64,000 nt of DNA, taken from contig CBFGIT010000010.1 of assembly GCA_965648905.1 (NCBI GenBank), positions 1 to 64,000 on the forward strand, in the 5' to 3' direction. The notes below the pieces were generated by a model, which worked only from the letters and a program-made list of their open reading frames with translations, had not been told where the DNA came from and made no database searches. The first letter of the stretch is position 1, and every line of letters starts with the position of its first letter. This DNA comes from a candidate division WOR-3 bacterium. GTDB taxonomy: Bacteria; Hydrothermota; Tepidihabitantia; Tepidihabitantales; Tepidihabitantaceae. Shown piece after piece: positions 4,793 through 63,891 of the stretch. A program made the translations under genes and the position numbers.

Positions 4793-5937
4793 AAGAGAGC
4801 CGAGCCGGCGTTAGAACAGGGCAGAGCGCGGGTGGTGCCGGGCTGGTCGGGCAGGAACATGCGCTCGGCGTGCTTGAGTCGTATCTGGTGCGGGAGCAGG
4901 TGCCGGCGTTATTGTTTGTCGGTCTGCCCGGTGTGGGCAAGCGGACGGCCGGGATTGGATTTGCTCAGGCCTTGAACTGCACAGCCCGGGTGCAGTCGTG
5001 GGGATGCGGCCAGTGCCGTTCGTGTCGGACGATCGCGCTGCTGCGCCATCCGGACGTGAAGGTGGTATTTCCGGTCGGGGCGCGGCGGTACCGCCCGGAA
5101 CAGGATGACATGACCGATGACGCCGTTGCTGCGACCCTTGACCGTTACGGCGAGTACGCACTGGGACAGGCCCAGCCGGCGCTCGACCCGAAGCATCGAA
5201 TCCGCATCGAGCTGGTCCGATGGCTGCGAGCCGAGATGGCCCGTCCGGCCGTGCTCGCCCGCCGGCGCGTGGTGCTGATACTTTCGGCCCACCGGATGAC
5301 CGATGAGGCGGCCAATGCCCTGCTCAAGACACTGGAAGAACCGCACGAGCAGACGGCGTTCATCTTGACGTCGGATGTGCCGAGTGCTCTGCCCGATACG
5401 ATTCGTTCACGCTGTCGCACGGTGAGATTCGCGGCGCTTTCGTCCCAGACCATTGCCGGGTGGCTGGAGCGGCACCACTCGTGCCCACCCGACCAGGCAC
5501 AGGCAGCCGCGGCAGTGGCCCAGGGCTCGATGGCTCGCGCTCTGCGCTACATCGCAGAACCGGCCGAGCTGTTGCCCGAGCCGGTCCTTTCTTTTCTCTC
5601 AAAGCCCGGAACTGAGGCCGCGCTGCTTGCGGCCGTGGCAGAGCTGACCAACATGTCCCAGTCGTCGCTGACCGACGTCTTGCTAACGGTCTTCCGTGAG
5701 ATGTTGCGGTCTCGACTGGGCTTTGACTCATTGCTGCTCCGGCAGAATCCGGACCTGGCCGCGCGCGCCGGCCGGTCCGAGCCTGACTATCTCAGACGGG
5801 CGGTCAAGTACCTGCTCGAGCGCGACGAGGAATCCTCGCTCTACACCAACCCCCGACTGGCGACCTACACCCTGTTGACTGCGCTGCGGTTCCCGCAAGC
5901 GGCGGCTACGGCTCGCCGACCGTCACGAGGTCCCTAA
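4789..5937 (+). CDS. holB: DNA polymerase III delta prime subunit
   Basis: AAA+ Walker A-like GLPGVGKRT, zinc module CGQCRSCR, SRC motif region (TIRSRCRTVRF); ATGA overlap with upstream gene. Confidence 0.8.
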   Translation: MKESRAGVRTGQSAGGAGLVGQEHALGVLESYLVREQVPALLFVGLPGVGKRTAGIGFAQALNCTARVQSWGCGQCRSCRTIALLRHPDVKVVFPVGARRYRPEQDDMTDDAVAATLDRYGEYALGQAQPALDPKHRIRIELVRWLRAEMARPAVLARRRVVLILSAHRMTDEAANALLKTLEEPHEQTAFILTSDVPSALPDTIRSRCRTVRFAALSSQTIAGWLERHHSCPPDQAQAAAAVAQGSMARALRYIAEPAELLPEPVLSFLSKPGTEAALLAAVAELTNMSQSSLTDVLLTVFREMLRSRLGFDSLLLRQNPDLAARAGRSEPDYLRRAVKYLLERDEESSLYTNPRLATYTLLTALRFPQAAATARRPSRGP

Positions 5938-6280
5938 GCGCGGCCAGGCGCTTGGGCCCGATGCCCGGTACCCGGCGCAGTTCGTTCAGACTGCCGAACC
6001 GACCGTGCTGTTCCCGATACTCGACAATCCGCTGCGCCAGCTTGGGTCCGATGCCGGGAAGTGCTTCCAGTTCGTTGGTACTGGCGTGGTTGAGGTTGAG
6101 CGGCATATGGATTGAGTCGCGGACCGAAGGCAGGGGAGCAGGCTGGCGAGTTTCCAGCGCGGGCCGGCTGCGTACAAGCCGGGCATGGCGGAGCTGGCTC
6201 ACGCCGGCTCCGACCAGGAACGTTGCGGTCAGGAATACCAGGACCACGACTTCGCGCCGGGACAGGCCCAGTTGCCGCAT
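5906..6280 (-). CDS. comEA: ComEA family helix-hairpin-helix DNA-binding protein
   Basis: N-terminal TM segment then tandem HhH motifs (NHASTNELEALPGIGPKLAQRIVEYREQHGRFGSLNELRRVPGIGPKRL). Confidence 0.8.
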   Translation of the reverse strand: MRQLGLSRREVVVLVFLTATFLVGAGVSQLRHARLVRSRPALETRQPAPLPSVRDSIHMPLNLNHASTNELEALPGIGPKLAQRIVEYREQHGRFGSLNELRRVPGIGPKRLAALRDLVTVGEP

Positions 6281-6291
6281 AACCTTGTCGG

Positions 6292-11847: not shown

Positions 11848-13736
11848 GACTGCGAGGTCGAAGAATCGTGCGGGCCGAAGAACCGGCCGAGCTGCCGGAC
11901 AAGTGCTTGGGGCGACAGCCCGACTGCTTCGAGCAACTGACTCCGGCTGCCATGCTCGATGAACTGGTCGGGCAGGCCAATGAGCAGGGTCTTTGGTCTT
12001 GGTTCAATTGCATCAAGGACAAGGCTGACTGCAGCGCCGAAGCCGCCGGCAATGACGTTCTCTTCTATGACCGCAAGCCGGGGATAGCGGCGGGCCGCGG
12101 CCAGGATTGCGGTCGTGTCAATGGGCTTGGCAAAGCGGGCGTTGATGACCGCGAGGTCGATTCCCTGGTCGGCCAGTTGCTGCGCTGCGAGGAGCGCGGT
12201 GTGCGCGGTCGGGCCCAGGGCAATAACACCGCCGTCCGTACCGTCGCGGAGAGGAGTCGAGCGGCCCGGCTCAATTGGAGGACGCTCGGCAAGGCCGAGC
12301 GGCGGGACCGAGCCGCGCGGATAGCGAAGCGCGGTCGGGCCGGTCGAGCTGGTCAGGGCGAACTGAAGCATCGCCTCGAGCTCGGGCAGGTCCATCGGCG
12401 CCATGACCGTCATCCCGGGCAGCATCGTGAGGTAGGAGATATCGAATGCGCCGTGGTGAGTCGGGCCATCCTCGCCGACCAGGCCGGCCCGGTCGACGGC
12501 GACGACGACCGGCAGGTTCTGAAGGCAGACGTCCTGCAGGAGCTGGTCCAGGGCCCGGGCGAGAAACGTCGAGTAGACTGCCACGACCGGCTTGAGTCCG
12601 GCAAGGGCCAGACCGGCAGCAAGAGTGACAGCATGTTGCTCGCAGATGCCGACATCAAAGAAGCGGTTCGGGAACTGGTCCCGGAACCGGGCCAGTCCGG
12701 TCCCAAGGCACATGCCGGCGGTAATTGCGACAATTCGGTCGTCCTGGGCCGCGAGTTCTGCCAGTCGAGTTCCAAAGCATGAAGTGAACGACGGCCCGTC
12801 CGCTCCGGTCACCCGGCCGGTCTCAGGGTCGAACGGGCCGGTGCCGTGGAACGTCTCGGGTCGTTCGACCGCAGGCCGATAGCCTTCGCCTTTGCGCGTG
12901 ACAACGTGGACAAGCACCGGGCCGCGCAGTGTCCGGACGCGGCGCAGGGTGTCGACTAACTCGGGCAGGCTGTGGCCGTCAACCGGTCCGATGTAGCGGA
13001 AACCGAGTTCCTCAAACAGGATGCTCGGGACAACGAGGTTCTTAAGACCCTCTTCGAGCTTGCGGGCAGCAAGGCGCGACTTCTCGCTCAGGTCTTCAGG
13101 AAGGTGACCAAGCAGGTTCCAGACATCGGCGCGGAGCCGGTTGTACATCCGGCCGGTAATCATCCGGTTGAGATAGCCGGCCATCGCCCCAGTGCTGCGG
13201 GCGATGCTCATCTCGTTGTCGTTCAGAATCACTACCAGGTCCTGTCTGAGGCAGCCGCCGTGGTTCAGTGCCTCAAATGCCATGCCGGCGACGACCGAGC
13301 CATCACCAATCACCGCGATTGAGCGGCGGTCCTGACCTTGGAGCCGGTCGCCGACCGCAGCGCCGAGCGCGACCGATATCGAGTTACCCGAGTGGCCGGT
13401 GTCGAACACATCGTATTCGCTCTCGGCCCGCTTGGGGAAACCGGCAATCCCCTTGTACTGGCGGAGAGTATGGAATCGGGCGCGGCGGCCGGTGACGATC
13501 TTGTGGGCGTAGCACTGGTGTCCGACATCCCAGACAACCCGGTCCTTGGGCGTGTCGAACACATAGTGGATTGCCAGGGTCAGCTCGACCACGCCCAGGC
13601 TCGGGGCAAGGTGTCCGCCGGTCCGGGCCGTGGTCTCGATGATAAGTGCGCGAATCTCCTGTGCCAGAGTCCTGAGTTCGGCAAGCGTCATCTGCCGCAG
13701 GTCGAGCGGCGACGAGACCCGGTCAAGAAGCGCCAT
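11844..13736 (-). CDS. dxs: 1-deoxy-D-xylulose-5-phosphate synthase
   Basis: Full-length match to DXS signature regions (GGHLAPSLGVVELTLAIHYVFDTPKDRVVWDVGHQCYAHKIVTGRR...GDGSVVAGMAFEALNHGG). Confidence 0.95.
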   Translation of the reverse strand: MALLDRVSSPLDLRQMTLAELRTLAQEIRALIIETTARTGGHLAPSLGVVELTLAIHYVFDTPKDRVVWDVGHQCYAHKIVTGRRARFHTLRQYKGIAGFPKRAESEYDVFDTGHSGNSISVALGAAVGDRLQGQDRRSIAVIGDGSVVAGMAFEALNHGGCLRQDLVVILNDNEMSIARSTGAMAGYLNRMITGRMYNRLRADVWNLLGHLPEDLSEKSRLAARKLEEGLKNLVVPSILFEELGFRYIGPVDGHSLPELVDTLRRVRTLRGPVLVHVVTRKGEGYRPAVERPETFHGTGPFDPETGRVTGADGPSFTSCFGTRLAELAAQDDRIVAITAGMCLGTGLARFRDQFPNRFFDVGICEQHAVTLAAGLALAGLKPVVAVYSTFLARALDQLLQDVCLQNLPVVVAVDRAGLVGEDGPTHHGAFDISYLTMLPGMTVMAPMDLPELEAMLQFALTSSTGPTALRYPRGSVPPLGLAERPPIEPGRSTPLRDGTDGGVIALGPTAHTALLAAQQLADQGIDLAVINARFAKPIDTTAILAAARRYPRLAVIEENVIAGGFGAAVSLVLDAIEPRPKTLLIGLPDQFIEHGSRSQLLEAVGLSPQALVRQLGRFFGPHDSSTSQS

Positions 13737-29595: not shown

Positions 29596-30795
29596 ATGGC
29601 GAAGCAGAAGTTCGAACGTACCAAGCCGCACGTCAACGTCGGAACGATTGGTCACGTAGACCACGGCAAGACGACGCTGACCGCAGCCATGACCAAGGTC
29701 CTGGAAGCGAGAGGCTTGGCCAAGTACAAGAGCTACGACGAGGTAGCCAAGGCGTCCGAGGCTCACGGCCGGCGTGATGAGACCAAGATTCTGACGATCG
29801 CGGTCTCGCACGTCGAGTACCAGTCAGAGAAGCGGCACTACGCGCATATCGACTGCCCGGGCCATGCCGACTACATCAAGAACATGATTACCGGTGCGGC
29901 TCAGATGGACGGTGCGATTCTCGTCGTGTCCGCGGCCGACGGCCCGATGCCTCAGACGACCGAGCACGTGCTGCTCGCCCGTCAGGTCAATGTGCCGGCG
30001 ATGGTGGTCTATCTCAACAAGGTGGACCTGGTCGACGACCCGGAGTTGATTGATCTGGTTGAACTGGAGATTCGCGACATCCTGAACAAGTATGAGTTCC
30101 CGGGCGACAAGACGCCGATTATTCGGGGCAGCGCCCTGAAGGCGATTCAGGGTTCGGAGCCGGACGTCGAGTCGATTCTCAAGCTGGTTGACGCGCTGGA
30201 CGCGTTCATCCCCGAGCCGGTGCGCGAGACCGACAAACCGTTCCTGATGCCGATCGAAGACATCTTCTCGATCACCGGTCGTGGCACGGTGGTGACGGGC
30301 CGGGTCGAGCGTGGGGTACTCAAGGCGGGCGAGGAGATCGAAATCATCGGTTTCGGCAAGCACGACAAGGTCGTGGTGACGTCGGTCGAAATGTTCCGGA
30401 AGATCCTTGAGGACGCGCGCGCCGGCGACAACGTCGGACTGCTGCTGCGCGGCGTGGCCAAGGATGACGTCGAGCGCGGCATGTGCATCGCCAAACCCGG
30501 CTCAATCAAGCCGCACAAGAAGTTCAAGGGCGAAGTCTACATTCTGACCAAGGACGAAGGCGGACGTCATACGCCGTTCTTCCCGGGTTACCGGCCGCAG
30601 TTTTACATCCGGACAACCGACGTGACCGGCAGCGTGACGCTGCCCGCGGGCGTCGAGATGGTGATGCCCGGAGACCACGTGACGATGGACATCGAGCTGA
30701 TCAGCGAGGTCGCACTCGAACACAACTCGAAGTTCGCCATCCGTGAGGGCGGTCGGACGGTCGGTGCCGGAACCGTGGTTCAGATTGTCGACTGA
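29596..30795 (+). CDS. tuf: Translation elongation factor Tu
   Basis: [22 protein letters not shown] motifs; full-length 399 aa; AAGGAGG RBS. Confidence 0.97.
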
Positions 30796-37100: not shown

Positions 37101-38073
37101 CGAGTTCCTGCGCTCGGACAGTTTCTCGAGCGTGGTGAACTTCGAGCAGCTCGTTTCCAACCCGAAGCTGCAGATGGAGCTGCGGGGCGCGACCAAGGAG
37201 TACGATGAAGCGCTCACTCAGGCGGACAAGGAGCGACGGCTTGAGATCGAGCGGGTCTCGCGCGGCGATGAGTTGCCGCACGGCGTGCTCAAGTGGATAA
37301 CGGTCTTCATCGCCCAGAAGCGCAGGTTGTCAGTTGGAGACAAGATGGCCGGGCGTCACGGCAATAAGGGCGTTGTCTCTAAGGTGTTGCCGGTCGAGGA
37401 CATGCCCTACGTTTCCGTCCGGGCCGACCAGGAGGATGCGCCGGAGACGATTCGCGGGATGCGCGGAGTCACGGTTGACATGGTGCTCAACCCTCTGGGC
37501 GTGCCGTCACGCATGAACCTCGGGCAAGTGCTTGAGACTCATCTCGGCTGGGCCGCCAAGGTGCTGGGCTACCAGGCTATCTGTCCGGTTTTCCAGAGCG
37601 CAACGCCGGAGGAGATCAAGGATGAGTTGAAACGGGCCGGTCTGCCCGAGAGCGGTAAGATCGTCCTGCACGACGGCCGCACCGGGCAGCCCTTTGACGG
37701 CAAAGTCACGGTGGGCATGATGTACATGGTCAAGCTGATTCACATGGTTGACGACAAAATCCATGCCCGTTCCACTGGCCGCTACTCGCTTATCACTCAG
37801 CAGCCGCTGGGGGGGAAGGCGCAGTTCGGCGGCCAGCGGTTCGGCGAAATGGAGGTCTGGGCACTTGAGGCCTACGGTGCGGCCCATGCCCTGCAGGAGA
37901 TGTTGACCATCAAGTCGGACGACGTCGAGGGCCGCAGCGCGCTTTACGAGTCGTTGATTCGCGGCAAGAACCCACCCAGGCCCAAGGCTCCGGCCTCCTT
38001 CTCGGTGCTCGTGAAGGAACTGCAGGGGCTGGGGCTGGAGTTGATACCGGAGCGTGGGGAGGTGACAGCATGA
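34117..38073 (+). CDS. rpoB: DNA-directed RNA polymerase subunit beta
   Basis: 1318 aa, canonical rpoB motifs throughout; TGA stop overlapping rpoC start. Confidence 0.98.
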   Translation: MQQKNFARSGTHLEIPNLLSLQLDSFAEFVQLGVDPAKREPKGLEGVLRETFPLEDVHKNFRLEYVGYTFGEPKYTTEEAMAKGVNYSMPLKVVFRLIKKEFGDGAERVKDILEQEVFFCELPWMTVNGTFIINGVERVVVSQLHRSPGVYFSREENEFSALLVPLRGAWFELVVDKHNSMVVLLDRKRRISAATFLRAMNFSHEDVVRKLLPVERRKLELGQMLAQELAGEGGEVYARTGDFVTEGLLDLLTAKGITEADVVVGNPPGMDIVANTLRADRTGSKEEALKRIYYRLRSIAPHSLEVAEQMILGMLFDRKRFDLGAVGRYKLNQRLLTKVPLTETGLLEADVRAIISHLLLFAGDGRLYLLRVPATTAEERDAVLAELKKADLMPESLHWYERRALLEMTFYDEERGRQAEKSLKESGRKPVGETTRYQADDVDHLSSRRVKRVGELLENQFRAALLQLSQNIRERAAFIDDTQLVPQELVNTRVVANAIMQFFTQSQLCQFMEQTNPLTELTHKRRVSTLGPGGLTKETAGFEVRDVHYSHYGRICPIETPEGPNIGLISTVSTYARVDQYGFLTTPYWRVKDGKVLTGKGREVYINPDEEDRYAIAQATSELTSDGRFARDEVICRRGGDVVTLAPAEVDFMDVSPKQIFAPSTVMVPFLEHDDADRALMGANMQRQAVPLLLPERPLVATGVEAKFAAESGAILLSPEDGVVTKVDARAVVVRSSNGLTEYKLRKYKKSNQYTCLSQRPMVRAGDTVKKGDLLADGPATHEGQLALGRNVLVAFLPWRGYNYEDAIIVSEELIKDDGFTSIQILEFEIQARETKLGSEEITRDIPGATEEELRNLDEFGVIRLGAEVGPGDILVGRITPKGETEFTPEERLLRAIFGEKAANVRDTSLRVEPGVFGVIVDRRILSRKLTDAMNRRLEKERVAEANHRYDLKKEFFQMRRDERVRAVLRGQKAAANAKDSRGRVLHKAGQPMTDEFLRSDSFSSVVNFEQLVSNPKLQMELRGATKEYDEALTQADKERRLEIERVSRGDELPHGVLKWITVFIAQKRRLSVGDKMAGRHGNKGVVSKVLPVEDMPYVSVRADQEDAPETIRGMRGVTVDMVLNPLGVPSRMNLGQVLETHLGWAAKVLGYQAICPVFQSATPEEIKDELKRAGLPESGKIVLHDGRTGQPFDGKVTVGMMYMVKLIHMVDDKIHARSTGRYSLITQQPLGGKAQFGGQRFGEMEVWALEAYGAAHALQEMLTIKSDDVEGRSALYESLIRGKNPPRPKAPASFSVLVKELQGLGLELIPERGEVTA

Positions 38074-43172: not shown

Positions 43173-44825
43173 CTAGCCGAGAATGGACTTCAGGTCCTGT
43201 GTGGCAGTCGTTATTGGCATGATATTGAACTTGTCCACAAGAATCCGGACAAGGTTCGGTGTAAGGAAGGCGGGAAGAGATGGACCAAGGCGGATGTTCC
43301 TGACGCCGAGGTGGAGCAGGGTGAGAAGCACGGCAACTGCTTTCTGCTCGTACCAGGACAGAATGAACGACAGCGGCAGAGTGTTGATGTCCGTGTTGAA
43401 CTCCCGGGCCAATGCCGAGGCAATCTGAATTGCTGAGTAAGAGTCGTTGCACTGGCCGACGTCGAGAAGACGCGGAATGCCCTCGATCTCGCCGAACTCG
43501 AGTCGGTTGAACTTGAACTTGCCGCAGGCAAGCGTGAGGATGAGGGCGTCGTTGGGTACCAGGCGGGCAAACTCGGTGTAGTAGTTCCGGTCCGGCTTGG
43601 AGCCGTCGCAGCCGCCAATCAAGAAGAAGCGCTTGATCTTGCCGGCTTTGACCAGCGCGATTAGCTTGTCGGCGACAGACAGGACCGCGTTGTGGCCGAA
43701 CCCGACCGTAATGTACTTCGTTTCACCATCGGCAGCGTAGCCAGGAGCCTCAAGCGCAGCTTTGATGACCGGCGAGAAGTTCTTATCCGGGCCGATGTGG
43801 GGCACACCGGGGAACGCCACGAGTCCGGTGGTGAAGATACGGTCTTTGTAAGACTCGCGCGGGCGCTGGATGCAGTTAGTTGTCATCAGGATTGCGCCGG
43901 GGAATTCGGGAAACTCCCGCTGCTGGTTCTGCCAGGCAGTGCCGAAATGGCCGGCAAGGTGTTTGTAGGCTTTGAGTTTGGGATAGCCATGGCAGGGCAG
44001 CATCTCACCGTGGGTGTAGATATTGATGCCTTTGCCCTCGGTCTGCTTGAGCAGCAGTTCAAGGTCCCGAAGGTCATGGCCGGATACGACAATCGCTTTG
44101 CCTTTGAGCGGAGTGATGCGCACGCGGGTCGGCGCCGGGTGGCCGTAGGTCGTGGTGTTGGCCTTGTCGAGCAGCTCCATCACGCCGAGGTTGAGCTTGC
44201 CCACCTCGAGCGCAGTGGCAAGCAGGGTGTCAGCGTCCTGCGTATCTTGAGCGAGCAGGTCAAGGATGCGGTGGAATTCGGCGTAGAGTGCGTCGTTGTC
44301 GTGCCCAAGCACGTGTGCGTGGTCAGCATAAGCAGCCGCACCCTTCAGTCCGAACAGCACGAGGTCGTGCAGGTCGGCAACGTCATCGCCCCAGTTCTCG
44401 TGTCGGGCAAGGATGCCCACCGGCCGTCCCTGTCCGACAAGGCCGCCAATGTCTGGGGCTGGTTGCCAGGTTGCAGGGCCGGAGAGTTGTTTGACCGGTT
44501 GGCCGGCGTGAGCTGCGGCCCGTTCATAGAGCTGCCGGGACCGGTTTTTCAGCTCGCCGGCTTTGAGCAAGAGAGCACTGAGTCGCTCCGGGTCGAAGTC
44601 AACGTTCGTGATGGTCGCGAACAGCGCCTCGACCGTGAAGGCGTTGACCTCAGGGTCGGTTGCGCCCAGCGTTCGGGCCCGGTGGGCGTATTGACTGATA
44701 CCTTTGGCAGCATAGAGCAGCAGGTCCTGAAGCACCGCAGTCGTTTCGTCCTTACCGCAGACACCCTGAACCGTGCAGCCGGTTCCTTTGTTGGTCTGTT
44801 CACACTGATAGCAGAACATGCTCAA
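43173..44825 (-). CDS. hcp: Hydroxylamine reductase / hybrid cluster protein
   Basis: N-terminal Cys cluster MFCYQCEQTNKGTGCTVQGVCGK and full-length HCP similarity. Confidence 0.9.
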   Translation of the reverse strand: MSMFCYQCEQTNKGTGCTVQGVCGKDETTAVLQDLLLYAAKGISQYAHRARTLGATDPEVNAFTVEALFATITNVDFDPERLSALLLKAGELKNRSRQLYERAAAHAGQPVKQLSGPATWQPAPDIGGLVGQGRPVGILARHENWGDDVADLHDLVLFGLKGAAAYADHAHVLGHDNDALYAEFHRILDLLAQDTQDADTLLATALEVGKLNLGVMELLDKANTTTYGHPAPTRVRITPLKGKAIVVSGHDLRDLELLLKQTEGKGINIYTHGEMLPCHGYPKLKAYKHLAGHFGTAWQNQQREFPEFPGAILMTTNCIQRPRESYKDRIFTTGLVAFPGVPHIGPDKNFSPVIKAALEAPGYAADGETKYITVGFGHNAVLSVADKLIALVKAGKIKRFFLIGGCDGSKPDRNYYTEFARLVPNDALILTLACGKFKFNRLEFGEIEGIPRLLDVGQCNDSYSAIQIASALAREFNTDINTLPLSFILSWYEQKAVAVLLTLLHLGVRNIRLGPSLPAFLTPNLVRILVDKFNIMPITTATQDLKSILG

Positions 44826-44828
44826 TGG

Positions 44829-45662
44829 TCAGCTCCTGTTCTTGGTTGTTCCGTCCAGGTCAATTGTGATCTGGGCAAAGGGAATGGTCTTGCCTGAGGC
44901 TTTGATTGCCGCGCGGACAAGCTGGACCAGGCCGAAACAGCAGGGCACGGTCATATGGGCGACTGTGACCGATTTCGGTGTGTTGGTCCGAAATATCTCG
45001 GTCAGTTTCTCCTGGTAGGCCAGGGCATCGTCGAGCTTCGGGCAGCCGATGAGCAACACCTTACCTTGAACCAGTTCACGGTGGAAGTTGGGGTGGGCTG
45101 AGCCCACGCAGTCGGCGGATATGAGCAGGTCAGCACCGGCAAGATACGGGGCTGAAGGCGGGATCAGGGTAATCTGAATCGGCCAGTTGCGCAATGCCGA
45201 GGCGGCTCGGGGAACCGGTGAGTCAGACGGCTCAGGAGAAACGGAAGGGGAGATGTGGCGAACCGCAGAGCCTGGGCAGCCGCAGGGCAGGCGCGACGAG
45301 GCGGCCAGCGGGACCGGGATGCTGTGTTTCTTCAGGTAGGCGACGGCCTGGTTGTAGTACTCGGTTGCGCCGTGTTCTTTCAGATGGGCGAGGTGCGCAG
45401 CAATCGTGTTGGTACCGGCCTTGACGATATTCTCCATGACCCGGGTTTCATCGTAAGGTTCGGCGGGCCGCTCCTCAACGGTCATCGCTCCTTCGGGACA
45501 ATGGCCGACGCAGGCTCCGAGACCGTCGCAGAACAGGTCGGATACTAGTCGGGCCTTGCCGTCAATGACCTGGAGCGCACCTTCGGGACAATTCGGGATG
45601 CATTGGCCACAGCCGGTGCATTTCCCTTCGTCTATCCTGATTATCTTCCTTCGTGTTGTCAT
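44829..45662 (-). CDS. 4Fe-4S dicluster ferredoxin-domain protein with C-terminal extension (hcp-associated)
   Basis: CTGCGQCIPNCP and CDGLGACVGHCP ferredoxin motifs at N-terminus. Confidence 0.7.
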   Translation of the reverse strand: MTTRRKIIRIDEGKCTGCGQCIPNCPEGALQVIDGKARLVSDLFCDGLGACVGHCPEGAMTVEERPAEPYDETRVMENIVKAGTNTIAAHLAHLKEHGATEYYNQAVAYLKKHSIPVPLAASSRLPCGCPGSAVRHISPSVSPEPSDSPVPRAASALRNWPIQITLIPPSAPYLAGADLLISADCVGSAHPNFHRELVQGKVLLIGCPKLDDALAYQEKLTEIFRTNTPKSVTVAHMTVPCCFGLVQLVRAAIKASGKTIPFAQITIDLDGTTKNRS

Positions 45663-54789: not shown

Positions 54790-55050
54790 TCCGCTTGACG
54801 TAAAGCCGCACCGCGGCCCCGAACTTGCGCCAGCTCGCCCGCTGGAACAGCTTGCCGAGCAGCGCTTGCACTCCGGCCCATCATCTGAACCGGTGGCGGA
54901 TGATGCGCAGTCTGATGGCCGAGAGTTCATCGACGCCAAGCCCGGGCTGCAGGAGCAGAGGAATCGATGGGTCCTGACTCAGGTCGACAAGGCGCGGGCC
55001 AGAGTACTCCTCGCTCCACGAGAAGCCGGCAGGCAGCAGGCCGCGTTCAG
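54790..55050. repeat. Direct repeat copy A (degenerate duplicate of 3' end of rSAM gene at 59068-59335)
   Basis: About 260 bp, roughly 90% identical to 59068-59335 by eye (ccgaacttgcgccagctcgcccgctggaacagcttgccgagcagcg...ggcagcaggccg). Confidence 0.8.
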
Positions 55051-56810
55051 CGCTGGATGACAAGCTTCTGTGCGGCCTGGTGGCCTTGCGCCTCCAGCCG
55101 CACGAAGTAGACACCGTCAGGGAGTGCCGCGCCCAGCGGGACGGAGTACCGACCCGGCGTGTGCCTACCTGACGCCAGTTCGGCCACAACCCGTCCCGCC
55201 GCGTCGAACAGGCATAGCCTGACCTCTGCCGACTTCGGCACATCGTAGCAGGCCATCGCTCTGCCAGGAGCCGGGCTTGGACTGACGGACAAGGCCCAGT
55301 CGGCCGGAGCCGCGACCGGAGCCTCGCAAGCCCCCACTGGCGCAATCTGGAAAGCCTGATGTGACTCGTCAAACTGCCAGCCAGGCCCGTAGGCGATGGC
55401 CAGAATCTTGGCCCAGGCGAGCGTCGTTTCCGGCACGACCCAGACGTAGCTTGATTCGCTCGGTGCAAGTCCGGTCGCAATCGTATCCAGCCGCCAGAAC
55501 CACTCACCAGTCGGCACGATTGTATCGGTCAACAGGAACAACGACACCGAATCGCACCTCGGGGGCTGAAACAGCCGCCAGCGAATCTCGCACGTGTCGC
55601 CCGAGCGAAGGAAGTGGTTCGTGTCCGGGCTGAGCACCCGGATGCACTCGACCTCCAGCACGAAGCTCTGCCCGTGCCCGCCGACCAATATCTCCTTGTA
55701 TCCGTTCCGGTTGAAGTCGGCCGCATTGCACATGCTGAAGATCCCCTGGCCAAATCCGCCATCGCAGACTCTCTCATACTGGTGCGGCCCGGTGGCCTTC
55801 AAGATGATGATCCGGTATCCACAGCCCCAGATGACCTCGTCCAGGCTGTCTCCGTCCACGTCGGCACACAGACTCTGGCCGCAGTAAGGCTCGTAGACGC
55901 TTGACGCTGTATCGACTGTGTCGCAGAAGTACTGATGCTCGAAAGGAGCCTCGACCTGGCAGAGGGTTTGTGAGTACCTCAGGCCACCCAGATTTCCGCT
56001 AACCACGTCGAAGTACTCAGGTCTTCCGTTGTGGTCCACGTCGCGCCCGGAAAACCTGTCGTTGTCTCCCCAGGAGCCGGTATACACTGAGCAGACCCGT
56101 TCGTACCGATTGTCGCCAATGCACTCAACTACATGGTCCCCGCGGAAATTCCCGTTGCCGAACGCATAGTCGGTTCGGCCATTCTGGTCGAAGTCGCCTA
56201 TCACCGGCAGCGACCATACATAAGAGCGCGGGGCTGTACAGACCAGGCTTTCGCGGTCGTTGCCCACGTTCTCGAAGACCGCAGTGGATTCCACTCCCCA
56301 AGGGGTTACGATGTCCCAGGCCGAGTCTCCATCAAGATTCGAGCAGAGCGCCGGACAGGCGGCGGCGCTGTTTGGGGTCGGAATCCACCAAACCAGGGAG
56401 TCGGGGTGGGAGCGAGCGTCCCGACTCTCGAATATGCAGAGCGCCATCCTGTACCCGCTTCCACTGTCATATCCTGCCTCGCCTACGACTTCGAGCAGGC
56501 CGTCCCGGTCTACATCACAGACATCGTAGGGCCTCAAGTTCCCGAGCAGAATGCTCTCGCCAGAAGGGTAATGCCCCGTATCCGAGATGACGAGGTCGTA
56601 CCGGTTGACCGGCCTATACTCGGCCATCTGGAAGAGCCGACCGGGGTTGTGGATGACCTCTCCCAGACTATCGTGGTCTGTGTCGGTGGTCAGCAGCCTA
56701 TCAAGGGGATTGCTGGCGGCCAGGGGCAGGTCCGCAATCCGAACTAGAGCGAGTTCTGTCGCGGAGGCAACGGTGATGCCCGACAGGACGATGCCTAGGA
56801 GGGTTTTCAT
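55047..56810 (-). CDS. FG-GAP/VCBS repeat protein with T9SS C-terminal sorting domain
   Basis: Signal peptide; repeated DxDxDG/FG-GAP-like units (DVDGDS, DFDQNGRTDYAFGN, DVDHNGRPEY); CTD ...GVYFVRLEAQGHQAAQKLVIQR. Confidence 0.65.
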   Translation of the reverse strand: MKTLLGIVLSGITVASATELALVRIADLPLAASNPLDRLLTTDTDHDSLGEVIHNPGRLFQMAEYRPVNRYDLVISDTGHYPSGESILLGNLRPYDVCDVDRDGLLEVVGEAGYDSGSGYRMALCIFESRDARSHPDSLVWWIPTPNSAAACPALCSNLDGDSAWDIVTPWGVESTAVFENVGNDRESLVCTAPRSYVWSLPVIGDFDQNGRTDYAFGNGNFRGDHVVECIGDNRYERVCSVYTGSWGDNDRFSGRDVDHNGRPEYFDVVSGNLGGLRYSQTLCQVEAPFEHQYFCDTVDTASSVYEPYCGQSLCADVDGDSLDEVIWGCGYRIIILKATGPHQYERVCDGGFGQGIFSMCNAADFNRNGYKEILVGGHGQSFVLEVECIRVLSPDTNHFLRSGDTCEIRWRLFQPPRCDSVSLFLLTDTIVPTGEWFWRLDTIATGLAPSESSYVWVVPETTLAWAKILAIAYGPGWQFDESHQAFQIAPVGACEAPVAAPADWALSVSPSPAPGRAMACYDVPKSAEVRLCLFDAAGRVVAELASGRHTPGRYSVPLGAALPDGVYFVRLEAQGHQAAQKLVIQR

Positions 56811-56858: not shown

Positions 56859-58802
56859 CTACCGGGTCAGTACGACCTTGCGGGTCTGGCTGAAGCCCGA
56901 GGATTCGACACGGAGCAGGTAAGCGCCGGGCCTCACGGCACGCCCATTGGCATCCAGCCCGTTCCAGGTTGCGCTGTACGTACCCCGCCCACGGAATCCC
57001 GTGGCCACGCGCCGGACCACCCGACCAAGCGCGTCGTAGACACCGACGTCCACATAGCCCGGCTGCGAAACCGCGTAGTCGATGCGCGTTGCGGCACCGA
57101 TGATGGCTGGCCCGAGTTCGACAAGCTCCACTGGTTGGACACATCTGTCGGCCAGCACGGCGTCTCGGCTGCCGTCGTCCGATTTCCGCTTGTACGGATA
57201 GCACTGATATAGCTTCAGCTCGGCCAGCACGGCGTAGTCGCCCACAAGCCTCGTGATATCAAGGTCCACCCTGGAGTCCCCAACGTACTTCTCGCGCGGG
57301 ATGTACACGAGAACCGTCTCAAGAACGCCTGGCTCGAACCGAACCCTCGCGACCTGCACGCTGTCAAGAGAGAAACTCTGCTCCCACGTGTCCTGGCTAG
57401 CCTGGTACAGGACCGCCTCTACCCGGTAGTCGTAGTTCGGGTTCAGATACCAGAGACGGTACTTCAGTCCCTCGCGGCCATAGTCAACTGAATGGCCACG
57501 CCAGCGCCTGAAACCATCTCGGGCCAGGCAGTACCGCGAACGTACAGAGTCGCCAGCTTGGACGTCGTAGTACACGAACCCCCTGAAACCGTCGTGCGGT
57601 GGCGGCGTGAACACGTCGCGCCGGAACAGCACCTCATAGGGCGTCGGCGAGCCCGGTGCGGCTTCGCTGGTCCAGGCCGTGTGGAGCACGAGGTACTCTT
57701 CTGGGAGCGTGGACACTTCAGCAGCGATGTTCGGATACAGGGATTGAGGTTCGTCCACCTGGAGTGGAAACGTCGGCGGAAGCATGAACAGGTTCAACCA
57801 GATATCCTCGTCCACGGTGACATCCGCGCGCTGGTGCCACGCATGCGCCCACGGAGTGGACTGCTGCGGGCAATTGGCGTACTCCGTGGCCGCGTCGAGG
57901 ACAGGCTGAATGGGGAACCACACGCTAGGTGGGTCTTCCACGTACCGCTGTGCTCGCCATATCATGCCATCGTCACCTTGCTCCTTGCTTCGCCAGACGA
58001 CATAGACTGACTCTGCGAAGCTCTCGATCGAGGGATTGAACGCAGGTTTGTACAGGTCCGGCCGGGCTTGGGATACTTCCCATTGCCCGTCCCACCAGCC
58101 CGGCGCGATTCTCATCCTGTACCAGAGCTGGCGGTCGAACTGCGGGGGCAGCTGCTCACACCAAGACACATGGACGTACTCGCCTGGACCCCTCTCGCCA
58201 CCTGTGACAGCTACGCTGGGTTCCCAGAGATGCGCGTCGGCCGGGGCGGCCCAGGCGGCATCCGGCGGCTCCACTGGACCGGACGAGAGGGTGACCGTGT
58301 GCAAGCGTATGATGTGGTAAGACCATTCGGGGTCAAACCAGCCGTACGCGACACATACTGCTGGTCCGGTGCTTGCGACGGGAGGCTTGTGGCACACCGC
58401 CATCGACGGCGGGGTAAACACGTTGTCTTTGCACACCTCGAATGCCTGCCATATGCCAGAAGCCAGCCGCGCGGCCGTGAAGAGCTTCTGTGGGGCCCAT
58501 TTCCAGTAGCTGACCCAAGGCTGGCCTCCCTCACATACAATGCAGGGCTCTCTGCCTTCTCCGACGACCTCAACCGGCGACCAAGTGCTTCCCTGGTCGG
58601 TCGAGTACGAGTAGTGTATGGGTGAGTCGTCAGTTTCGCCGTAGGCGAAGACCAGGTGAAGCCATCCGGTCACAGGGTCCAGGGCCAGGTGGCGGCCCTG
58701 GTTGTACGCCGTAGCGTACTGGGTCTCGGTCGGGAACGACTGTCCAGCTACCGCAGACAGAAGCCCGACCACTGCGAACATGAAACAGATGCTTCTGACC
58801 AT
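56859..58802 (-). CDS. BNR/sialidase-like repeat protein with T9SS C-terminal sorting domain
   Basis: Start set to MVRSICFMFAVVGLLSAVAG (AAGGAGG RBS); BNR motif SYSTDQGSTW; CTD ..GAYLLRVESSGFSQTRKVVLTR. Confidence 0.6.
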   Translation of the reverse strand: MVRSICFMFAVVGLLSAVAGQSFPTETQYATAYNQGRHLALDPVTGWLHLVFAYGETDDSPIHYSYSTDQGSTWSPVEVVGEGREPCIVCEGGQPWVSYWKWAPQKLFTAARLASGIWQAFEVCKDNVFTPPSMAVCHKPPVASTGPAVCVAYGWFDPEWSYHIIRLHTVTLSSGPVEPPDAAWAAPADAHLWEPSVAVTGGERGPGEYVHVSWCEQLPPQFDRQLWYRMRIAPGWWDGQWEVSQARPDLYKPAFNPSIESFAESVYVVWRSKEQGDDGMIWRAQRYVEDPPSVWFPIQPVLDAATEYANCPQQSTPWAHAWHQRADVTVDEDIWLNLFMLPPTFPLQVDEPQSLYPNIAAEVSTLPEEYLVLHTAWTSEAAPGSPTPYEVLFRRDVFTPPPHDGFRGFVYYDVQAGDSVRSRYCLARDGFRRWRGHSVDYGREGLKYRLWYLNPNYDYRVEAVLYQASQDTWEQSFSLDSVQVARVRFEPGVLETVLVYIPREKYVGDSRVDLDITRLVGDYAVLAELKLYQCYPYKRKSDDGSRDAVLADRCVQPVELVELGPAIIGAATRIDYAVSQPGYVDVGVYDALGRVVRRVATGFRGRGTYSATWNGLDANGRAVRPGAYLLRVESSGFSQTRKVVLTR

Positions 58803-59042
58803 GAGAGAACCTCCTTGATGGTCACGAGAACATCTCTTTGGGAGTACGGCGAGTTCGTGCAACGGAGCTTCCCAAGGAAGCGCGCATACCGGCGGTCGGG
58901 AGCGGTCCCGTGCCAGCTTGCCCACCGTCATCCCGCCAAGAGTCTAGGCCAAGTCAGTCCGAAGTCAATGCCGCGCAGATTCGATCTCTGTGCAAGCCGG
59001 CCCCAAATGGCGCGGCACGGGCACTTGGTGCGCAAGACCGCG

Positions 59043-60482
59043 CTACCGCGCTGAGCCGGGCGCGAACAGCCGCCTCAAGTACAGCCTGACCGCGGCCCCG
59101 AACTTGCGCCAGCTCGCCCGCTGGAACAGCTTGCCGAGCAGCGTCTTGACTCCGGCCCAGCCTCCGAATCGCTGGCGGATGATGCGCAGCCTGATGGCCG
59201 AGAGTTCATCGACGCCAAGCTCGGGCTGCAGGAGCAGAGGAATCGATGGGTCCTGGCTCAGGTCGACAAGGCGCGGGTCAGAGTACTCCTCGCTCCACGA
59301 GAAGCCGGCAGGCAGCAGGCCGTGTTCTCGGGCATAGGTCTCAAGGTGCGTTCCCGGGTAGATGCGGACGCCCGCGCCACAGGCAAGGGTGGAGATGCGC
59401 TTGCGGTGTTTCTCGACGAACCGGAACGTCTGCTCGACATCGGCCATGGTCTCTGCAATGTGGCCCATGGAGAAAAAGACCTTGGTCTTGAGTCCCAGGT
59501 CGGCGCACCAGCCGAGCAGTTCTTCGGCTCGCTCTAGACGGAACCCCTTACACATCGCGTCGAGCACGCGCTGACTGGCTGACTCGATGCCGAAGTCGAC
59601 GTAGTAGCAGCCTGCCCGCTGCATCCTCTCAAGCAGGGGCAGGTCAACCGTGCCGACCCTGATTTCGCACTCCCAGGGGAAACTGAGGCCCCGGCGTTCG
59701 ATTTCGGCACAGATGCCTTCGATGTGGGGCCGGCGCAGGGTGATGGTCGAGTCAAAGAACCTGATGCCCTCGTAGCCGTACTTATCCATGAGCAGTTGGA
59801 CCTGGTCGAGCACATACCCGGCCGAGTGGCAGGTAACGTCATGTCCGTACATCGCGCTGGCCGAGCAGAAGGTGCACTGCATGGTGCAGCCGCGCGAGGA
59901 GATGAACGCGATGCCGCGCTTGTTCAGGAATTCCATCCTGAGTGCGTAGCGGTTCATCGCCAGCAGGTCCCAGGCCGGGCCGGGCAGCGAGTCGAGGTGC
60001 TGGATGCGCACCGGCGGCCCGGTTTCGACGATGCCGCGGTTCTGCCGGAACAGCAGACCCGGGACGCGGGTGAGCTCAGCCGGTCCTGTCCTCAACGTAC
60101 GCAGAATGACGGTCATGCTCTCTTCGCCTTCTCCCCGCACCACGATGTCGATGTCGGGCACGTGAGCGAGCGTGTCGCGGCCGGTGAACGAGGCATGGAC
60201 GCCTCCGAAGACCGTCCTGATTTCGGAGCTGAAACACTTGACCCGGCGGGCGATGTCGAAGCTCTGGTAGCGCGTGTGGGTTGTGCCGGAGATCCCGACC
60301 ACGCGCGGCTGGAGTTCGGCAAGGTGTTTCTCCAGGGGCTGTTGTTCGACTTCGTAGTCGAGGAGTTTCACCGAGAATCCCCCTGCCCGGGCGTGGGCCG
60401 CAATGTAGGCCAGGCCGAGCGGCGGTATCAGCTCGAACGGAGTTCCCCGTTCCTTGGGGTTTACCAGCAACAGGTCAATCAT
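59043..60482 (-). CDS. B12-binding domain radical SAM protein
   Basis: N-terminal cobalamin-binding region then CTMQCTFCSA (CxxxCxxC) radical SAM motif. Confidence 0.8.
   Translation of the reverse strand: MIDLLLVNPKERGTPFELIPPLGLAYIAAHARAGGFSVKLLDYEVEQQPLEKHLAELQPRVVGISGTTHTRYQSFDIARRVKCFSSEIRTVFGGVHASFTGRDTLAHVPDIDIVVRGEGEESMTVILRTLRTGPAELTRVPGLLFRQNRGIVETGPPVRIQHLDSLPGPAWDLLAMNRYALRMEFLNKRGIAFISSRGCTMQCTFCSASAMYGHDVTCHSAGYVLDQVQLLMDKYGYEGIRFFDSTITLRRPHIEGICAEIERRGLSFPWECEIRVGTVDLPLLERMQRAGCYYVDFGIESASQRVLDAMCKGFRLERAEELLGWCADLGLKTKVFFSMGHIAETMADVEQTFRFVEKHRKRISTLACGAGVRIYPGTHLETYAREHGLLPAGFSWSEEYSDPRLVDLSQDPSIPLLLQPELGVDELSAIRLRIIRQRFGGWAGVKTLLGKLFQRASWRKFGAAVRLYLRRLFAPGSAR
59068..59335. 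repeat. Direct repeat copy B (intact 3' end of rSAM gene)
   Basis: Matches 54790-55050. Confidence 0.8.
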
Positions 60483-60569: not shown

Positions 60570-61067
60570 TTGCTCTGCTATAGTCCGACCGTGGATAGCA
60601 CTCACATCCTCGAAGCCGCGGGTCGGTTTCACGGCCATATCGGGCCCTGGCTTGCTCTTGGCGTTCGGGCCGGTCTGCTGGCCATGGAACGGCTCGGAGC
60701 CTCCCACTTTGGCCTTGGGGCCGACGTGCGCTGCCCGGAGCGCACTCCCTACACGTGTTTCCTTGACGGCATTCAATTCAGCACCGGCTGTACCATGGGC
60801 AAGGGTAACATCCGCCATCTTGTTGCTGAAGGCTGCTCGGTCGTTTTCTCGACCAGCGGAAAAGGTCTGCCGGGTCGCACGTTGGAACTGGGGGTTGCGC
60901 CGGACCTGTGGGCCGAGTTACACGAAGACCGTCAACTGAACGATCGGCAGGTGACTTTGCTCGGCTATGACGTGTTCGAGAGGCCGACTGAGTCTCTGTT
61001 CCGGGAATACCCACCCGATACGAATTCCGAAACCAGCAGCACCGGACCGGAGTCTAACGAGCCGTAA
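60570..61067 (+). CDS. FmdE/FwdE-domain protein (formylmethanofuran dehydrogenase subunit E-like)
   Basis: RFHGHIGPWLALGVRAG motif typical of FmdE domain; divergent from rSAM gene. Confidence 0.6.
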   Translation: MLCYSPTVDSTHILEAAGRFHGHIGPWLALGVRAGLLAMERLGASHFGLGADVRCPERTPYTCFLDGIQFSTGCTMGKGNIRHLVAEGCSVVFSTSGKGLPGRTLELGVAPDLWAELHEDRQLNDRQVTLLGYDVFERPTESLFREYPPDTNSETSSTGPESNEP

Positions 61068-61088
61068 CCCAATCAGGAGGTGAGCAAT

Positions 61089-61538
61089 ATGGCTCGTAAT
61101 CTAGTTACCTGGGACCCGTTCCGTGAGATGACTTCGATGCGGGACGAAATGGAACGGCTCTTTGATAACATGCTCGGTCGCTATCCGCGCGAGCGGGCTG
61201 ATGCATTCTGGGTGCCGTCGGTTGACGTCGAAGAGAGCAACGAGGCGGTGACGGTTCGTGCCGAGATTCCCGGCATGAAGAAGGACGACATCAAAGTGAC
61301 GGTGTCGGATGACCTGGTCACCATCAGCGGCGAACGCAAGCATGAAGTCGAGCAGAAGGACAAGACCTTTCACCGCATCGAGCGCGTCTACGGCAAGTTC
61401 CAGCGCACGATCGGCCTGCCGGCTGATGTCGAGGGCGACAAGGCCAAGGCCAGCTACAAGGCCGGAGTACTTGAGCTGGTTCTGCCCAAGTCGGCCAAAG
61501 CCCGGGCCCACGAAGTACAGATAAAGGCCGAGGAATAG
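61089..61538 (+). CDS. Hsp20/alpha-crystallin family small heat-shock protein
   Basis: Alpha-crystallin domain (AFWVPSVDVEESNEAVTVRAEIPGMKKDDIKV...GVLELVLPK). Confidence 0.85.
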   Translation: MARNLVTWDPFREMTSMRDEMERLFDNMLGRYPRERADAFWVPSVDVEESNEAVTVRAEIPGMKKDDIKVTVSDDLVTISGERKHEVEQKDKTFHRIERVYGKFQRTIGLPADVEGDKAKASYKAGVLELVLPKSAKARAHEVQIKAEE

Positions 61539-61692: not shown

Positions 61693-63891
61693 ATGATGAA
61701 GTTCTGCTTACTGGCAGTCTGGGTCGGTGTTGCCCAGGCCGCCTGGATTTCAGTTGGTCCGGATGGCGGGTACGTCCAGGCGTTTGGCGTTGACCCGCAG
61801 GCACACGAGCATCTCTACGCGGCCTGCTATGACTACCCGGAGAACTCAAGGCTGTTTCGTTCGACCGATGCCGGCGCATCCTGGGCGCTGCTGGGTACGA
61901 TTCCTTATCCGTCGGTTACAGCTCTGGCGGTTGACCCGTTTGATGCGCGTTTCATCTACGTTGCCGCACGCGGGTCAGGACTGTACCGCTCGGACGACGG
62001 CGGTGCGAGCTGGCGCATGTATAGTCTGCCCGGTCAAGCCAATGCATTCGACTGGAGCACGGGCGTGGCCGGTCGGATCGTTGCTGGCGGCTACTACCTG
62101 TCAGGCGGCAGCTACCGGGCGGCACTGTTCGTTTCGACCGACCGTGGGGCAACGTGGTCGGTGTCAATGCCGCGGCCGGATACGGTGTTCTACGCCTATG
62201 CCTGTGCCGCAGACCCATCCCGGCCTGGGACCGTGTATCTGGGCAGCAGCTCAGGTTACCTGCATCTTACCACTAATGGCGGCAGCACGTGGACTCTTGT
62301 TAACTCGGGCCTGCCGTCGACCGCGACGACCATGAGTCTGGCGGTCAACTCGGACGGCAGCGCAGTGCTGGCCGGGACCAGCGCCGGCATATACCGCAGC
62401 ACAAACCAGGGTGCAAGCTGGACACTGGGTACGGGCTCGCCCGGCTCGGTGACGAGCGTCACTTTCTCGCCGGCAGACGCGCGGTACGCCTGGACCCTGG
62501 GCCGGACTGATTCGATGCGGGTCATGGTTTCGACCGACGCGGGCAGTCGCTGGACCGTACCGGTGCCGGGCTTTGTGACGCTCAAGACCGCAACCCTCGT
62601 GCCCGACCCGGCGACCCCAACCTGCGCTTACCTCGGTACCCAGACCGGGGTCTTTCGTTCGACCGACATGGGCGCAATCTGGAACCCGGCGCATACCGGT
62701 TTGCGTATCGCCAAGATTTCGACGATCGCGGCCGGGCCCTGGAACAGCGAACGGGCCTACCTTGAAGTATCTGAAAACGGTGTCTTCAAGACTCTGAACC
62801 GGGGCTCGAACTGGACCCGGTGCAACGACTTCCTTTCCTGCGGTAACATCTGTGGAATCGGGGTACTGACCGAATCCGGCGGCGACGTCTTGTACGCGCT
62901 TGAGGGCTCGGGCTGAGGCAACGCCGAGCTCTTCAAGAGCACGGACGGCGGTGCCGTCTGGATAGAAATCGAAAGCTACTACGGTGAGGGCGGGGCCTGC
63001 ATCGGTCATCCGGATTCGCTCAGGACCCTGCTTACCGGGGGGCAGGGCGCGGCAGCAGACAGCTACGGGTTCGTCGTTTCAACTTCCTTCAATGCCGGAC
63101 AGAGCTGGCTGAGGAGGCGCATGGCTTATCCGTGTCGCGGCTACTGCAATGCGCTGGCCGTACGTACCGGGACAGACCGGGCCGTGTACGCAGGCGGGTG
63201 GGTTAACTTCCCGACTGGAACGTCTGGTGCGGTCCTGAAGTCTACCGACTTTGGCGCGACGTGGGAATCGTTGCCCGGTCCTCTGCCTGATACGGTGTTC
63301 GGCATTGTGGCCGACGACCAGGACGGGCCTTTGGTCTTCTGCGCGACGACGAGCGGTGTCTATCGCACGACCAACGAAGGGCAGAGCTGGACCAGAGTGC
63401 TGGGTCAGCGCGGAATGCGGGCATTGGCTCGGGCTGGAACGCGCTGTGCCGCGGCCGGAGATTCCGGGGTCTGGGTGACCACGGACCAGGGCGCAAGCTG
63501 GGTCAAACTCGATTCCGGCCTTGGTTCGACCAGGGTGAACTGCCTTGAGTTCATGGCCGGAGCTGATGACTGGCTCTGGCTATTGGCCGGCACTCACGGC
63601 AGGGCAGTGTTCTACTGGGACTTCGGGCCGACCGCGGCCGCGGGGCCTTGCGTTCCGGTCGGGTGCAGGATACCAGCGTCGGTGCTGCGCGCCCGGCTGG
63701 TTCTGGATCTGGAGCAGGGGTCAAGGGTTCGGTTACTTGATGCTGCGGGCCGGACCGTGCTCAGCAGGCGTCTGCACCGGGGTCGGGCAGAGCTGGATGT
63801 TTCGTATCTGCCTGCCGGTCTCTACTTTGTGCAGCGGACCGACGTAGAGTCCGGCAAGTCGGTTACGACCAAGGTCGTGGTCGAGCGCTAG
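61693..63891 (+). pseudogene. BNR (xxDxGxTW) repeat T9SS cargo gene interrupted by in-frame TGA at 62914-62916 (ORFs 61693..62916 and 63121..63891 share one frame)
   Basis: Signal peptide; at least 8 BNR repeats (STDAGASW, DDGGASW, STDRGATW, TNGGSTW, STNQGASW, STDAGSRW, STDMGAIW); the supposedly intergenic 62917-63120 continues in frame with another BNR unit (KSTDGGAVW); C-terminal T9SS CTD. Confidence 0.6.

Follow-up and report, generated by a model that had tools for sequence, protein, structure and literature searches.

Does a stop codon in the middle of an otherwise intact reading frame end the protein, or is it read as an amino acid? This question is raised by a gene at positions 61693 to 63891 in a stretch of 64,000 nucleotides (hereafter the window) from a candidate division WOR-3 bacterium (contig CBFGIT010000010.1 of assembly GCA_965648905.1), which encodes a BNR-repeat protein with the features of a cargo of the type IX secretion system (T9SS) and which is interrupted by a single in-frame UGA at codon 408. 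We regard this UGA with high confidence as a conserved and functional recoding site, and we assign a probability of roughly 0.7 to the reading that the residue inserted at position 408 is selenocysteine, as judged from comparisons of the gene with its relatives.

One in-frame UGA divides the gene

In the window, an open reading frame (ORF) of 407 amino acids that is terminated by TGA (61693..62916) is followed by a second one in the same frame (63121..63891). Retranslation of 61693-63891 agrees with a first-pass annotation of the window, which had described the two ORFs as split by one TGA, and contains a single internal stop (TGA 62914-62916) among 732 sense codons. The gene is composed of the following features:

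61693..63891, + strand: complete recoded gene, 732 sense codons and a TAG stop, with one internal UGA
61693..61740, + strand: predicted N-terminal signal peptide MMKFCLLAVWVGVAQA, judged by eye from the sequence
62914..62916, + strand: in-frame UGA at codon 408, proposed to encode selenocysteine and flanked as LEGSG-UGA-GNAELF
62917..63120, + strand: in-frame coding stretch of 68 codons that had been called 'intergenic' and which, as placed by the structure model, covers most of blade 10 and, in blade 9, strand C and the Asp-box
63703..63882, + strand: T9SS type A C-terminal sorting domain (CTD), residues 671-730, TIGR04183

The 204 nucleotides separating the called ORFs translate to GNAELFKSTDGGAVWIEIESYYGEGG..., which includes a canonical Asp-box, with GNAELFKSTDGGAVW... 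corresponding to a β-strand and this Asp-box, so that the earlier claim of a coding 'intergenic' stretch with a BNR unit is borne out. This stretch contains no stop in any orthologue and no conserved start codon. The description of a secreted BNR protein of about 730 residues that is divided by a single TGA was equally correct. Its N-terminus, inspected by eye, reads MMKFCLLAVWVGVAQA-AW and resembles a signal peptide, a Pfam search with the fused protein identifies Sortilin-Vps10 (111 bits) and BNR domains, and TIGR04183 matches residues 671-730 with a borderline score of 23.8 bits at a cutoff of 23. A second sorting domain profile, PF18962, which is annotated on the called C-terminal ORF (P0121), scores 20.7 bits and thus under its cutoff of 27. 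The combination of signal peptide and CTD predicts that Sec and the T9SS export the protein, either onto the cell surface or into the medium.

Elsewhere in this genome, TGA is an ordinary stop. The gene rpoB (TIGR02013, 1533 bits, aligned through the end of the model) terminates with TGA at 38071-38073 and tuf at 30793-30795, and among the window's 41 stop-to-stop ORFs with a length of 300 codons or more, 24 are closed by TGA. These observations rule out a genome-wide reassignment of UGA (code 4 or 25) and confirm the exclusion of code 25 in the first-pass annotation, which had been based on the termination of rpoB, tuf and other genes.

The UGA is conserved among relatives

In a homology search with the fused protein as query, about 70 of the best 120 matches listed are proteins of 401-416 amino acids that end at this very codon and cover the first 53-56% of the query. 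The relatives share 35-81% protein identity, and every one for which an organism is named belongs to candidate division WOR-3. In three of them, at identities of 81%, 57% and, for a copy in the complete genome CP070680.1, 35%, the gene is followed in the same frame by an ORF of 235-271 amino acids, and readthrough results in each case in one protein of about 730 residues with one stop at the identical position. Together with further loci from a scan of metagenomes and a scan of species-representative genomes, the collection comprises 54 sites and 45 distinct sequences. All 45 carry TGA at this codon, with TAA, TAG and sense codons counting zero. On complete contigs, the UGA is preceded by 403-483 open codons (743 in the locus L014) and followed by 309-329 (425 in L044). 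Orthologues without the interruption, for which the first-pass annotation had suggested to look, are thus absent from this set, and a sense codon at the site is found only in copies with Gly (L072/L073) or Pro (P0076). The UGA resides where the protein is most conserved, in a segment that reads C-x-x-F-L-(S/A)-C-G-N-I-C-G-I-G ... Y-A-L-E-G-S-G-*-G-N-A-E-L-F-K-S-T-D-G-G-A-V-W, where the asterisk marks the stop.

Several genomes harbour two UGA-type paralogues each: they reside in CP070680.1 (L081 and L082, with 51% and 42% identity to the query and UGA and motif in each), in L080, where they are found in tandem at 2161 and 4357, and in L041, where they are located at 829 (+) and 2816-2849 (-). 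Since both paralogues keep the UGA and the motif, the recoding site has outlived gene duplication and long divergence.

The codons following the UGA constitute a constrained RNA element

The nucleotides directly 3' of the UGA are near-invariant and follow the pattern TGA GGN NNN NCN GAG CTC TTY NNG AGC NCN GAC GGC GGN NCC GTC TGG. When 19 full-length orthologues are aligned by codon, codons +4..+16 have a normalised synonymous entropy of 0.30, compared to 0.74 elsewhere, with zero entropy in five of nine columns inside and one of 94 outside of this region, and none of 100,000 permutations was as low as observed. The frozen synonymous choices include Leu CTC, Ser AGC, Gly GGC and Val GTC, and the third positions in codons +1, +9 and +12, which are predicted to be unpaired, vary freely. 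The G+C content at third codon positions (GC3) of the motif is about 0.92 whatever the composition of the host genome, with a gene GC3 that spans 0.39 to 0.90 among the hosts. The TGA with its downstream motif of 45 nucleotides occurs once in the window and in none of 100 shuffles. The conserved region is predicted to fold into two small hairpins, the second of which is a candidate for a selenocysteine insertion sequence (SECIS):

62928..62940, + strand (+15..+27 from the U of UGA): hairpin 1, GCUC-UUCAA-GAGC, with the frozen Leu CTC, Ser AGC and NNG codons
62944..62958, + strand (+31..+45): hairpin 2, GACGGC-GGU-GCCGUC, candidate for the apical stem-loop of a SECIS, its loop following C-G-G-N-G

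Covariation was analyzed in 37 distinct sequences. The pairs of hairpin 1 (G15CUC18/G24AGC27) are formed in 99% of cells and those of both hairpins together in 95.4%, and hairpin 2 (G31ACGG(C)/(G)CCGUC45) displays compensatory changes in three base pairs. Four pairs are changed on both sides; none of 500 shuffles attains this number, and sliding the register gives at most one such pair. In L042, three consecutive pairs of hairpin 2 are swapped (from GAC...GUC to ACU...AGU), which entails the amino acid changes D to T and V to S in the Asp-box, and in L041, G-C pairs are replaced by A-U in both hairpins by synonymous changes seen nowhere else. Hairpin 2 was also found independently by RNAalifold. 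On its own, it has a minimum free energy (MFE) of -8.3 kcal/mol in the window, and it is weaker than -7.5 kcal/mol (on average -6.9) in copies that are devoid of the sixth pair. The 51 nucleotides from the UGA, which encompass both hairpins, fold at -11.7 to -26.2 kcal/mol.

Two larger structures were considered and rejected. A stem of 8 base pairs between GGGCUCGG (62904-62911) and CCGAGCUC (62924-62931), which would place the UGA in a loop of 12 nucleotides, is probably incidental since its upstream arm is not conserved in orthologues. Likewise, a long stem (CGCCG/CGGCG) in which hairpin 1 would be nested forms in the sequence of the window, and its arms are not conserved across orthologues.

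Copies with a sense codon at the site

A locus of 46% GC (L074:699-5229, GCA_975967705.1, contig CDLTZO010000110.1) harbours two paralogues of the family in tandem. Copy A contains the TGA, the cysteine motif CGNIC and the frozen GC-rich motif, and copy B, the protein P0076, is a single chain of 742 amino acids with CCG (Pro) at the site. P0076 has preserved the peptide GNAELFKTTDGG, which is spelled GAA CTT TTT AAA ACT ACT GAT GGA GGA ACC AGC and departs from most of the frozen codons. The hairpin regions of this copy are predicted at 0 and -1.1 kcal/mol, compared to -5.6 and about -6 to -8 kcal/mol for the UGA type, and the cysteine motif upstream of the site is gone, with no cysteines left in this region. 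As P0076 retains the peptide and has lost the hairpins, the constraint on the nucleotides is tied to the UGA and not to the amino acid motif. The tandem pair thus provides a natural control, and it may represent a snapshot of the gain or loss of a recoding site.

The second sense variant, GGA (Gly), which is one step from UGA, is confined to L072:4202-6467 and L073 (ENA ERZ27245794; JGI Ga0212093_1006204). Here the RNA motif is still intact, from which we conclude that the change to Gly is recent. This gene appears to be frameshifted about 140 codons ahead of the site, between called ORFs at 4202-4993 and 5001-6467, and may be a decaying gene or an assembly artefact common to the two assemblies.

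Protein fold and location of residue 408

For structural insight, a model (AF2) of the paralogue P0076 was used to stand in for the protein of the window (pLDDT 88.7, pTM 0.80). In Foldseek, it is matched best by GH74 xyloglucanases, with a TM of 0.62-0.65 and E values of about 1e-28, and PorZ (5m11) is found among the structural matches. A profile of the family detects GH74 chains with E = 2e-50, with sequence alignments that are out of register owing to the repeats. An alignment with the called C-terminal halves, which had been misaligned onto N-terminal repeats, was set aside. According to the model, the fold is that of two tandem seven-bladed BNR propellers, resembling GH74 enzymes and sortilin, followed by the CTD. 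The resemblance to GH74 xyloglucanases and to BNR glycosylhydrolases of the F510_1955 family concerns the tandem propeller as modelled on P0076; the identity is only 14-19%, the GH74 enzymes contain neither a recoded codon nor a CGNIC motif, and the score for the F510_1955 family (NF045728, 165.3 bits) falls short of the cutoff of 175 for membership. Similarly, PorZ and other type A propeller cargo of the T9SS share the two propellers and the C-terminal sorting domain, whereas the PorZ profile NF052228 matches the CTD only, with 20.8 bits at a cutoff of 260, so that the protein does not qualify as an orthologue of PorZ.

The site corresponds to P412 in P0076, which is located in a turn between strands 405-409 and 418-421 of what we count as blade 9. 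Residue 408 would thus occupy a tight turn that leads from strand B to strand C in blade two of the second propeller. As the UGA falls into the middle of a blade, the product of 407 residues that results from termination would consist of one propeller and about 1.5 blades, and this cut inside of a propeller argues that the full-length product is the functional one.

Upstream of the site, the alignment of orthologues contains a conserved group of cysteines:

62821..62853, + strand: cysteine-rich motif C377-x5-C383-G-N-I-C387 (CNDFLSCGNIC)

Within this motif, C383 is invariant in the 19 full-length UGA-type orthologues aligned, and the motif as a whole is present in UGA-type copies and in the Gly variant and missing in the Pro paralogue P0076. 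In the standard topology of propellers, the D-A loop and the B-C turn of a blade emerge on one and the same face. The D-A loop carrying C383, 25 residues upstream, would thus share a face with residue 408, which makes a pairing of cysteine and selenocysteine plausible. This arrangement suggests that residue 408 and C383 might form a redox-active or metal(loid)-binding site.

Selenocysteine as the probable inserted residue

Bacterial SECIS (bSECIS) elements have been described to contain an apical loop of 3-9 nucleotides on a stem of 4-16 base pairs, with a G as first or second base of the loop, mostly in the pattern N1-G-[G/U]-N-N2 where N1 and N2 are paired, at a spacing of 16-37 nucleotides between UGA and loop and with an MFE of -7.5 kcal/mol or lower (PMC13188914). 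Hairpin 2, with a stem of 5-6 base pairs, a GGN or CGGNN loop (C36-G37-G38-N39-G40) and a spacing of 32-33 nucleotides, fits this model; its MFE alone passes the threshold in the window and not in copies where the sixth pair is missing. Among the properties by which bacterial selenoproteins are recognized, we find the conserved in-frame UGA, an open frame on both sides, a stem-loop of the bSECIS type, and covariation with suppressed synonymous variation. The statement in the first-pass annotation that no SECIS would be evident is therefore contradicted by a conserved, covarying hairpin at the expected distance from the UGA. Neither does its assessment of the local context as unlike selenocysteine hold, since the sequence S-G-U-G is identical to the selenocysteine context of the selenobacteriocin family (TIGR04081) tabulated in the same review (PMC13188914), which is otherwise an unrelated family of small peptides with two selenocysteines.

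The locus can be compared to bacterial genes with an intragenic SECIS of the E. coli fdhF type, as captured in the bSECIS model of Zhang and Gladyshev (PMC13188914). Both have an in-frame UGA that is conserved in orthologues, a stem-loop in the coding sequence directly 3' of it with the G-G of the loop pattern in the apical loop, a conserved cysteine nearby and a truncated annotation in databases. Unlike genes of this type, the WOR-3 gene contains two short tandem hairpins instead of one long stem, our searches provide no cysteine homologue, and the protein is a T9SS cargo with a double propeller resembling GH74 enzymes and sortilin instead of a redox fold.

On this basis, we propose that the UGA at codon 408 would be recoded during translation, most likely as selenocysteine, in a single exported protein of about 732 residues. 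The mRNA directly 3' of the UGA would fold into the two hairpins, of which hairpin 2 (stem GACGG(C)/(G)CCGUC, loop C-GGN-G) would act as bacterial SECIS, bringing SelB and selenocysteyl-tRNA(Sec) to a ribosome paused at the UGA, and translation would proceed into the second half. As the loop of hairpin 1 lacks a G, we infer that SelB would read hairpin 2, and hairpin 1 may serve as spacer or helper. In the protein, C383 and U408 are plausible partners in space. The minimal SECIS of E. coli fdhF begins at +15, which coincides with the start of hairpin 1.

Several observations weigh against selenocysteine. No cysteine aligned with the UGA was found in the database homology searches, for which the best 120 matches were listed, or in the fetched loci. 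The only sense variants, Gly and Pro, would suit a structural turn as well as an active-site residue, and the double propeller is an atypical scaffold for a thiol-oxidoreductase. The third base of the hairpin 2 loop is not conserved as U. Searches with Rfam did not provide any hit at the gathering threshold in the window and, at E values up to 10 for 62860-63030, yielded only chance matches and no SECIS, which is to be expected for lineage-specific bSECIS elements. The genes selA, selB and selD and a tRNA-Sec were found neither in the window nor in about 0.7 Mb of scattered loci, none of which covers a whole genome. This search employed phmmer with sequences of E. coli SelA, SelB and SelD, of which SelB matched EF-Tu only, and ARAGORN. 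Finally, in the literature on WOR-3 we found no mention of selenocysteine use for the phylum. The first of these points gains weight from the description that a cysteine-containing homologue is known for nearly all selenoproteins (PMC13188914). A scan of the window and the fetched loci for other TGA-bridged ORFs in the same frame with C..U motifs and hairpins turned up nothing but Arg-rich noise out of frame.

Alternative explanations

The list of options in the first-pass annotation already included readthrough or recoding, which is supported by the conservation of the TGA in relatives, and the best-surviving alternative to selenocysteine belongs to this category. In a programmed readthrough independent of selenocysteine, which we consider unlikely, the hairpins would stimulate a near-cognate decoding of the UGA at a fixed efficiency and the identity of residue 408 would be irrelevant. 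Such a mechanism would yield a periplasmic form of 407 residues, with signal peptide and without CTD, next to a full-length form secreted by the T9SS, in agreement with the location of the UGA between the half bearing the signal peptide and the half bearing the CTD. In its favour are the lack of Cys homologues in database searches, the sense variants, which are both typical turn residues, and a selenocysteine machinery that was not seen in the window or in the loci, where no whole genome was covered. Yet the element obeys a SECIS model of the SelB type, which would be needless for a generic stimulator. The interruption of the blade between strands B and C makes a clean folding of the short product unlikely, and the cysteine motif accompanies the UGA-type copies and the recent Gly variant and is missing in the Pro paralogue. 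Moreover, a dedicated system of hairpin-driven UGA readthrough is not known to be established for bacterial chromosomal genes. In a related scenario, which appears rather improbable to us, WOR-3 bacteria would be devoid of a selenocysteine machinery, and UGA and hairpins would form a dedicated signal that is independent of selenocysteine and sets the ratio between periplasmic and secreted forms, or that directs the insertion of an ordinary residue via a SelB-like or allo-tRNA route. Here, too, the support comes from the lack of Cys homologues in the searches and from Gly and Pro as the sense variants.

Very unlikely is the presence of two real genes, where translation would stop at the UGA and the downstream part would be produced by coupling or reinitiation, with both chains assembling into the propeller pair. 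Gene callers annotate two ORFs everywhere, and in the divergent outlier L039 (L039:2341-2418, EGWT-UGA-MDAMLY), which keeps both hairpins, an ATG directly follows the UGA, making it the sole copy in which a coupling of stop and start is conceivable. Against this stands the lack of a conserved restart codon, as the first in-frame ATG is located between 1 and 282 codons past the UGA or is absent. Moreover, the codons just behind the UGA are the most conserved of the gene and encode the next β-strand and the Asp-box of the same blade, the frame across the stop is always kept, and the paralogue P0076 is a single chain. The first-pass annotation had named orthologues that are split at the same place with independent start signals as a finding against its proposal; the shared split is observed, the independent starts are not, and a shared split without conserved restart argues for programmed recoding instead of two genes.

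A recent nonsense mutation or pseudogene, a sequencing error as also considered in the first-pass annotation, or a genome-wide reassignment (code 4 or 25) might look alike in one genome, where a lone stop resides in an intact ORF, and is untenable given a TGA at the identical codon in 45 of 45 independent sequences from many samples and assemblies and in paralogues within one genome, an intact downstream ORF in all 45, and the use of TGA as stop in rpoB, tuf and most long ORFs of the window.

Genomic neighbourhood

Upstream of the gene, the window encodes two large proteins, one with an FG-GAP repeat (55047-56810, -) and one with a C-terminal domain of the FlgD-Ig type (56859-58931, -), both possibly further secreted cargo, followed by a B12-binding radical SAM enzyme (59043-60482, -), an FmdE-domain protein (60570-61067) and Hsp20 (61080-61538). 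None of these neighbours is related to selenium. In two distant orthologous loci (L001:4163-5590 and L003:1-2846), genes resembling protein O-mannosyltransferases (PMT_2, TMEM260) adjoin the gene, which may hint at a secreted propeller that is glycosylated or acts on glycans; synteny of the orthologous loci is otherwise not conserved.

Elsewhere in the window, a pair of ORFs in the same frame separated by TGA (43173-45662, -) was examined as a candidate for a second interrupted gene and rejected. One of the two ORFs (44829-45662, -) encodes a 4Fe-4S protein and the other (43173-44825, -) a hybrid-cluster (prismane) protein, and as the prismane match begins at position 1 of the profile, we consider them as two genes. 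Both proteins hint at an anaerobic lifestyle. On the minus strand, at 6295-12003, a stop-to-stop ORF extends over about 1900 codons.

Implications for a possible use of selenium in WOR-3

None of the 119 prokaryotic selenoprotein families and subfamilies inventoried in 2026 is a BNR, sortilin, PF15902 or T9SS entry (PMC13188914), and in reviews of selenoproteins we found no selenoprotein with a BNR, sortilin or T9SS assignment. The gene thus most likely represents a candidate for a new selenoprotein family of WOR-3, which is unusual in its scaffold, in its route of export and in the lack of a Cys form. As public copies are all split into two 'hypothetical proteins', the gene is miscounted in surveys of T9SS cargo, of carbohydrate-active and of adhesin-like proteins. 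If residue 408 is selenocysteine, the family would combine the insertion of selenium with a double propeller resembling GH74 enzymes and sortilin that has no cysteine counterpart, its members would be selenoproteins destined for the cell surface via the T9SS, and they would indicate the use of selenium in a phylum for which selenocysteine had not been reported in the literature that we found. If it is not, the locus would constitute a rare case of a deeply conserved, programmed readthrough of UGA in bacteria with a defined cis element.

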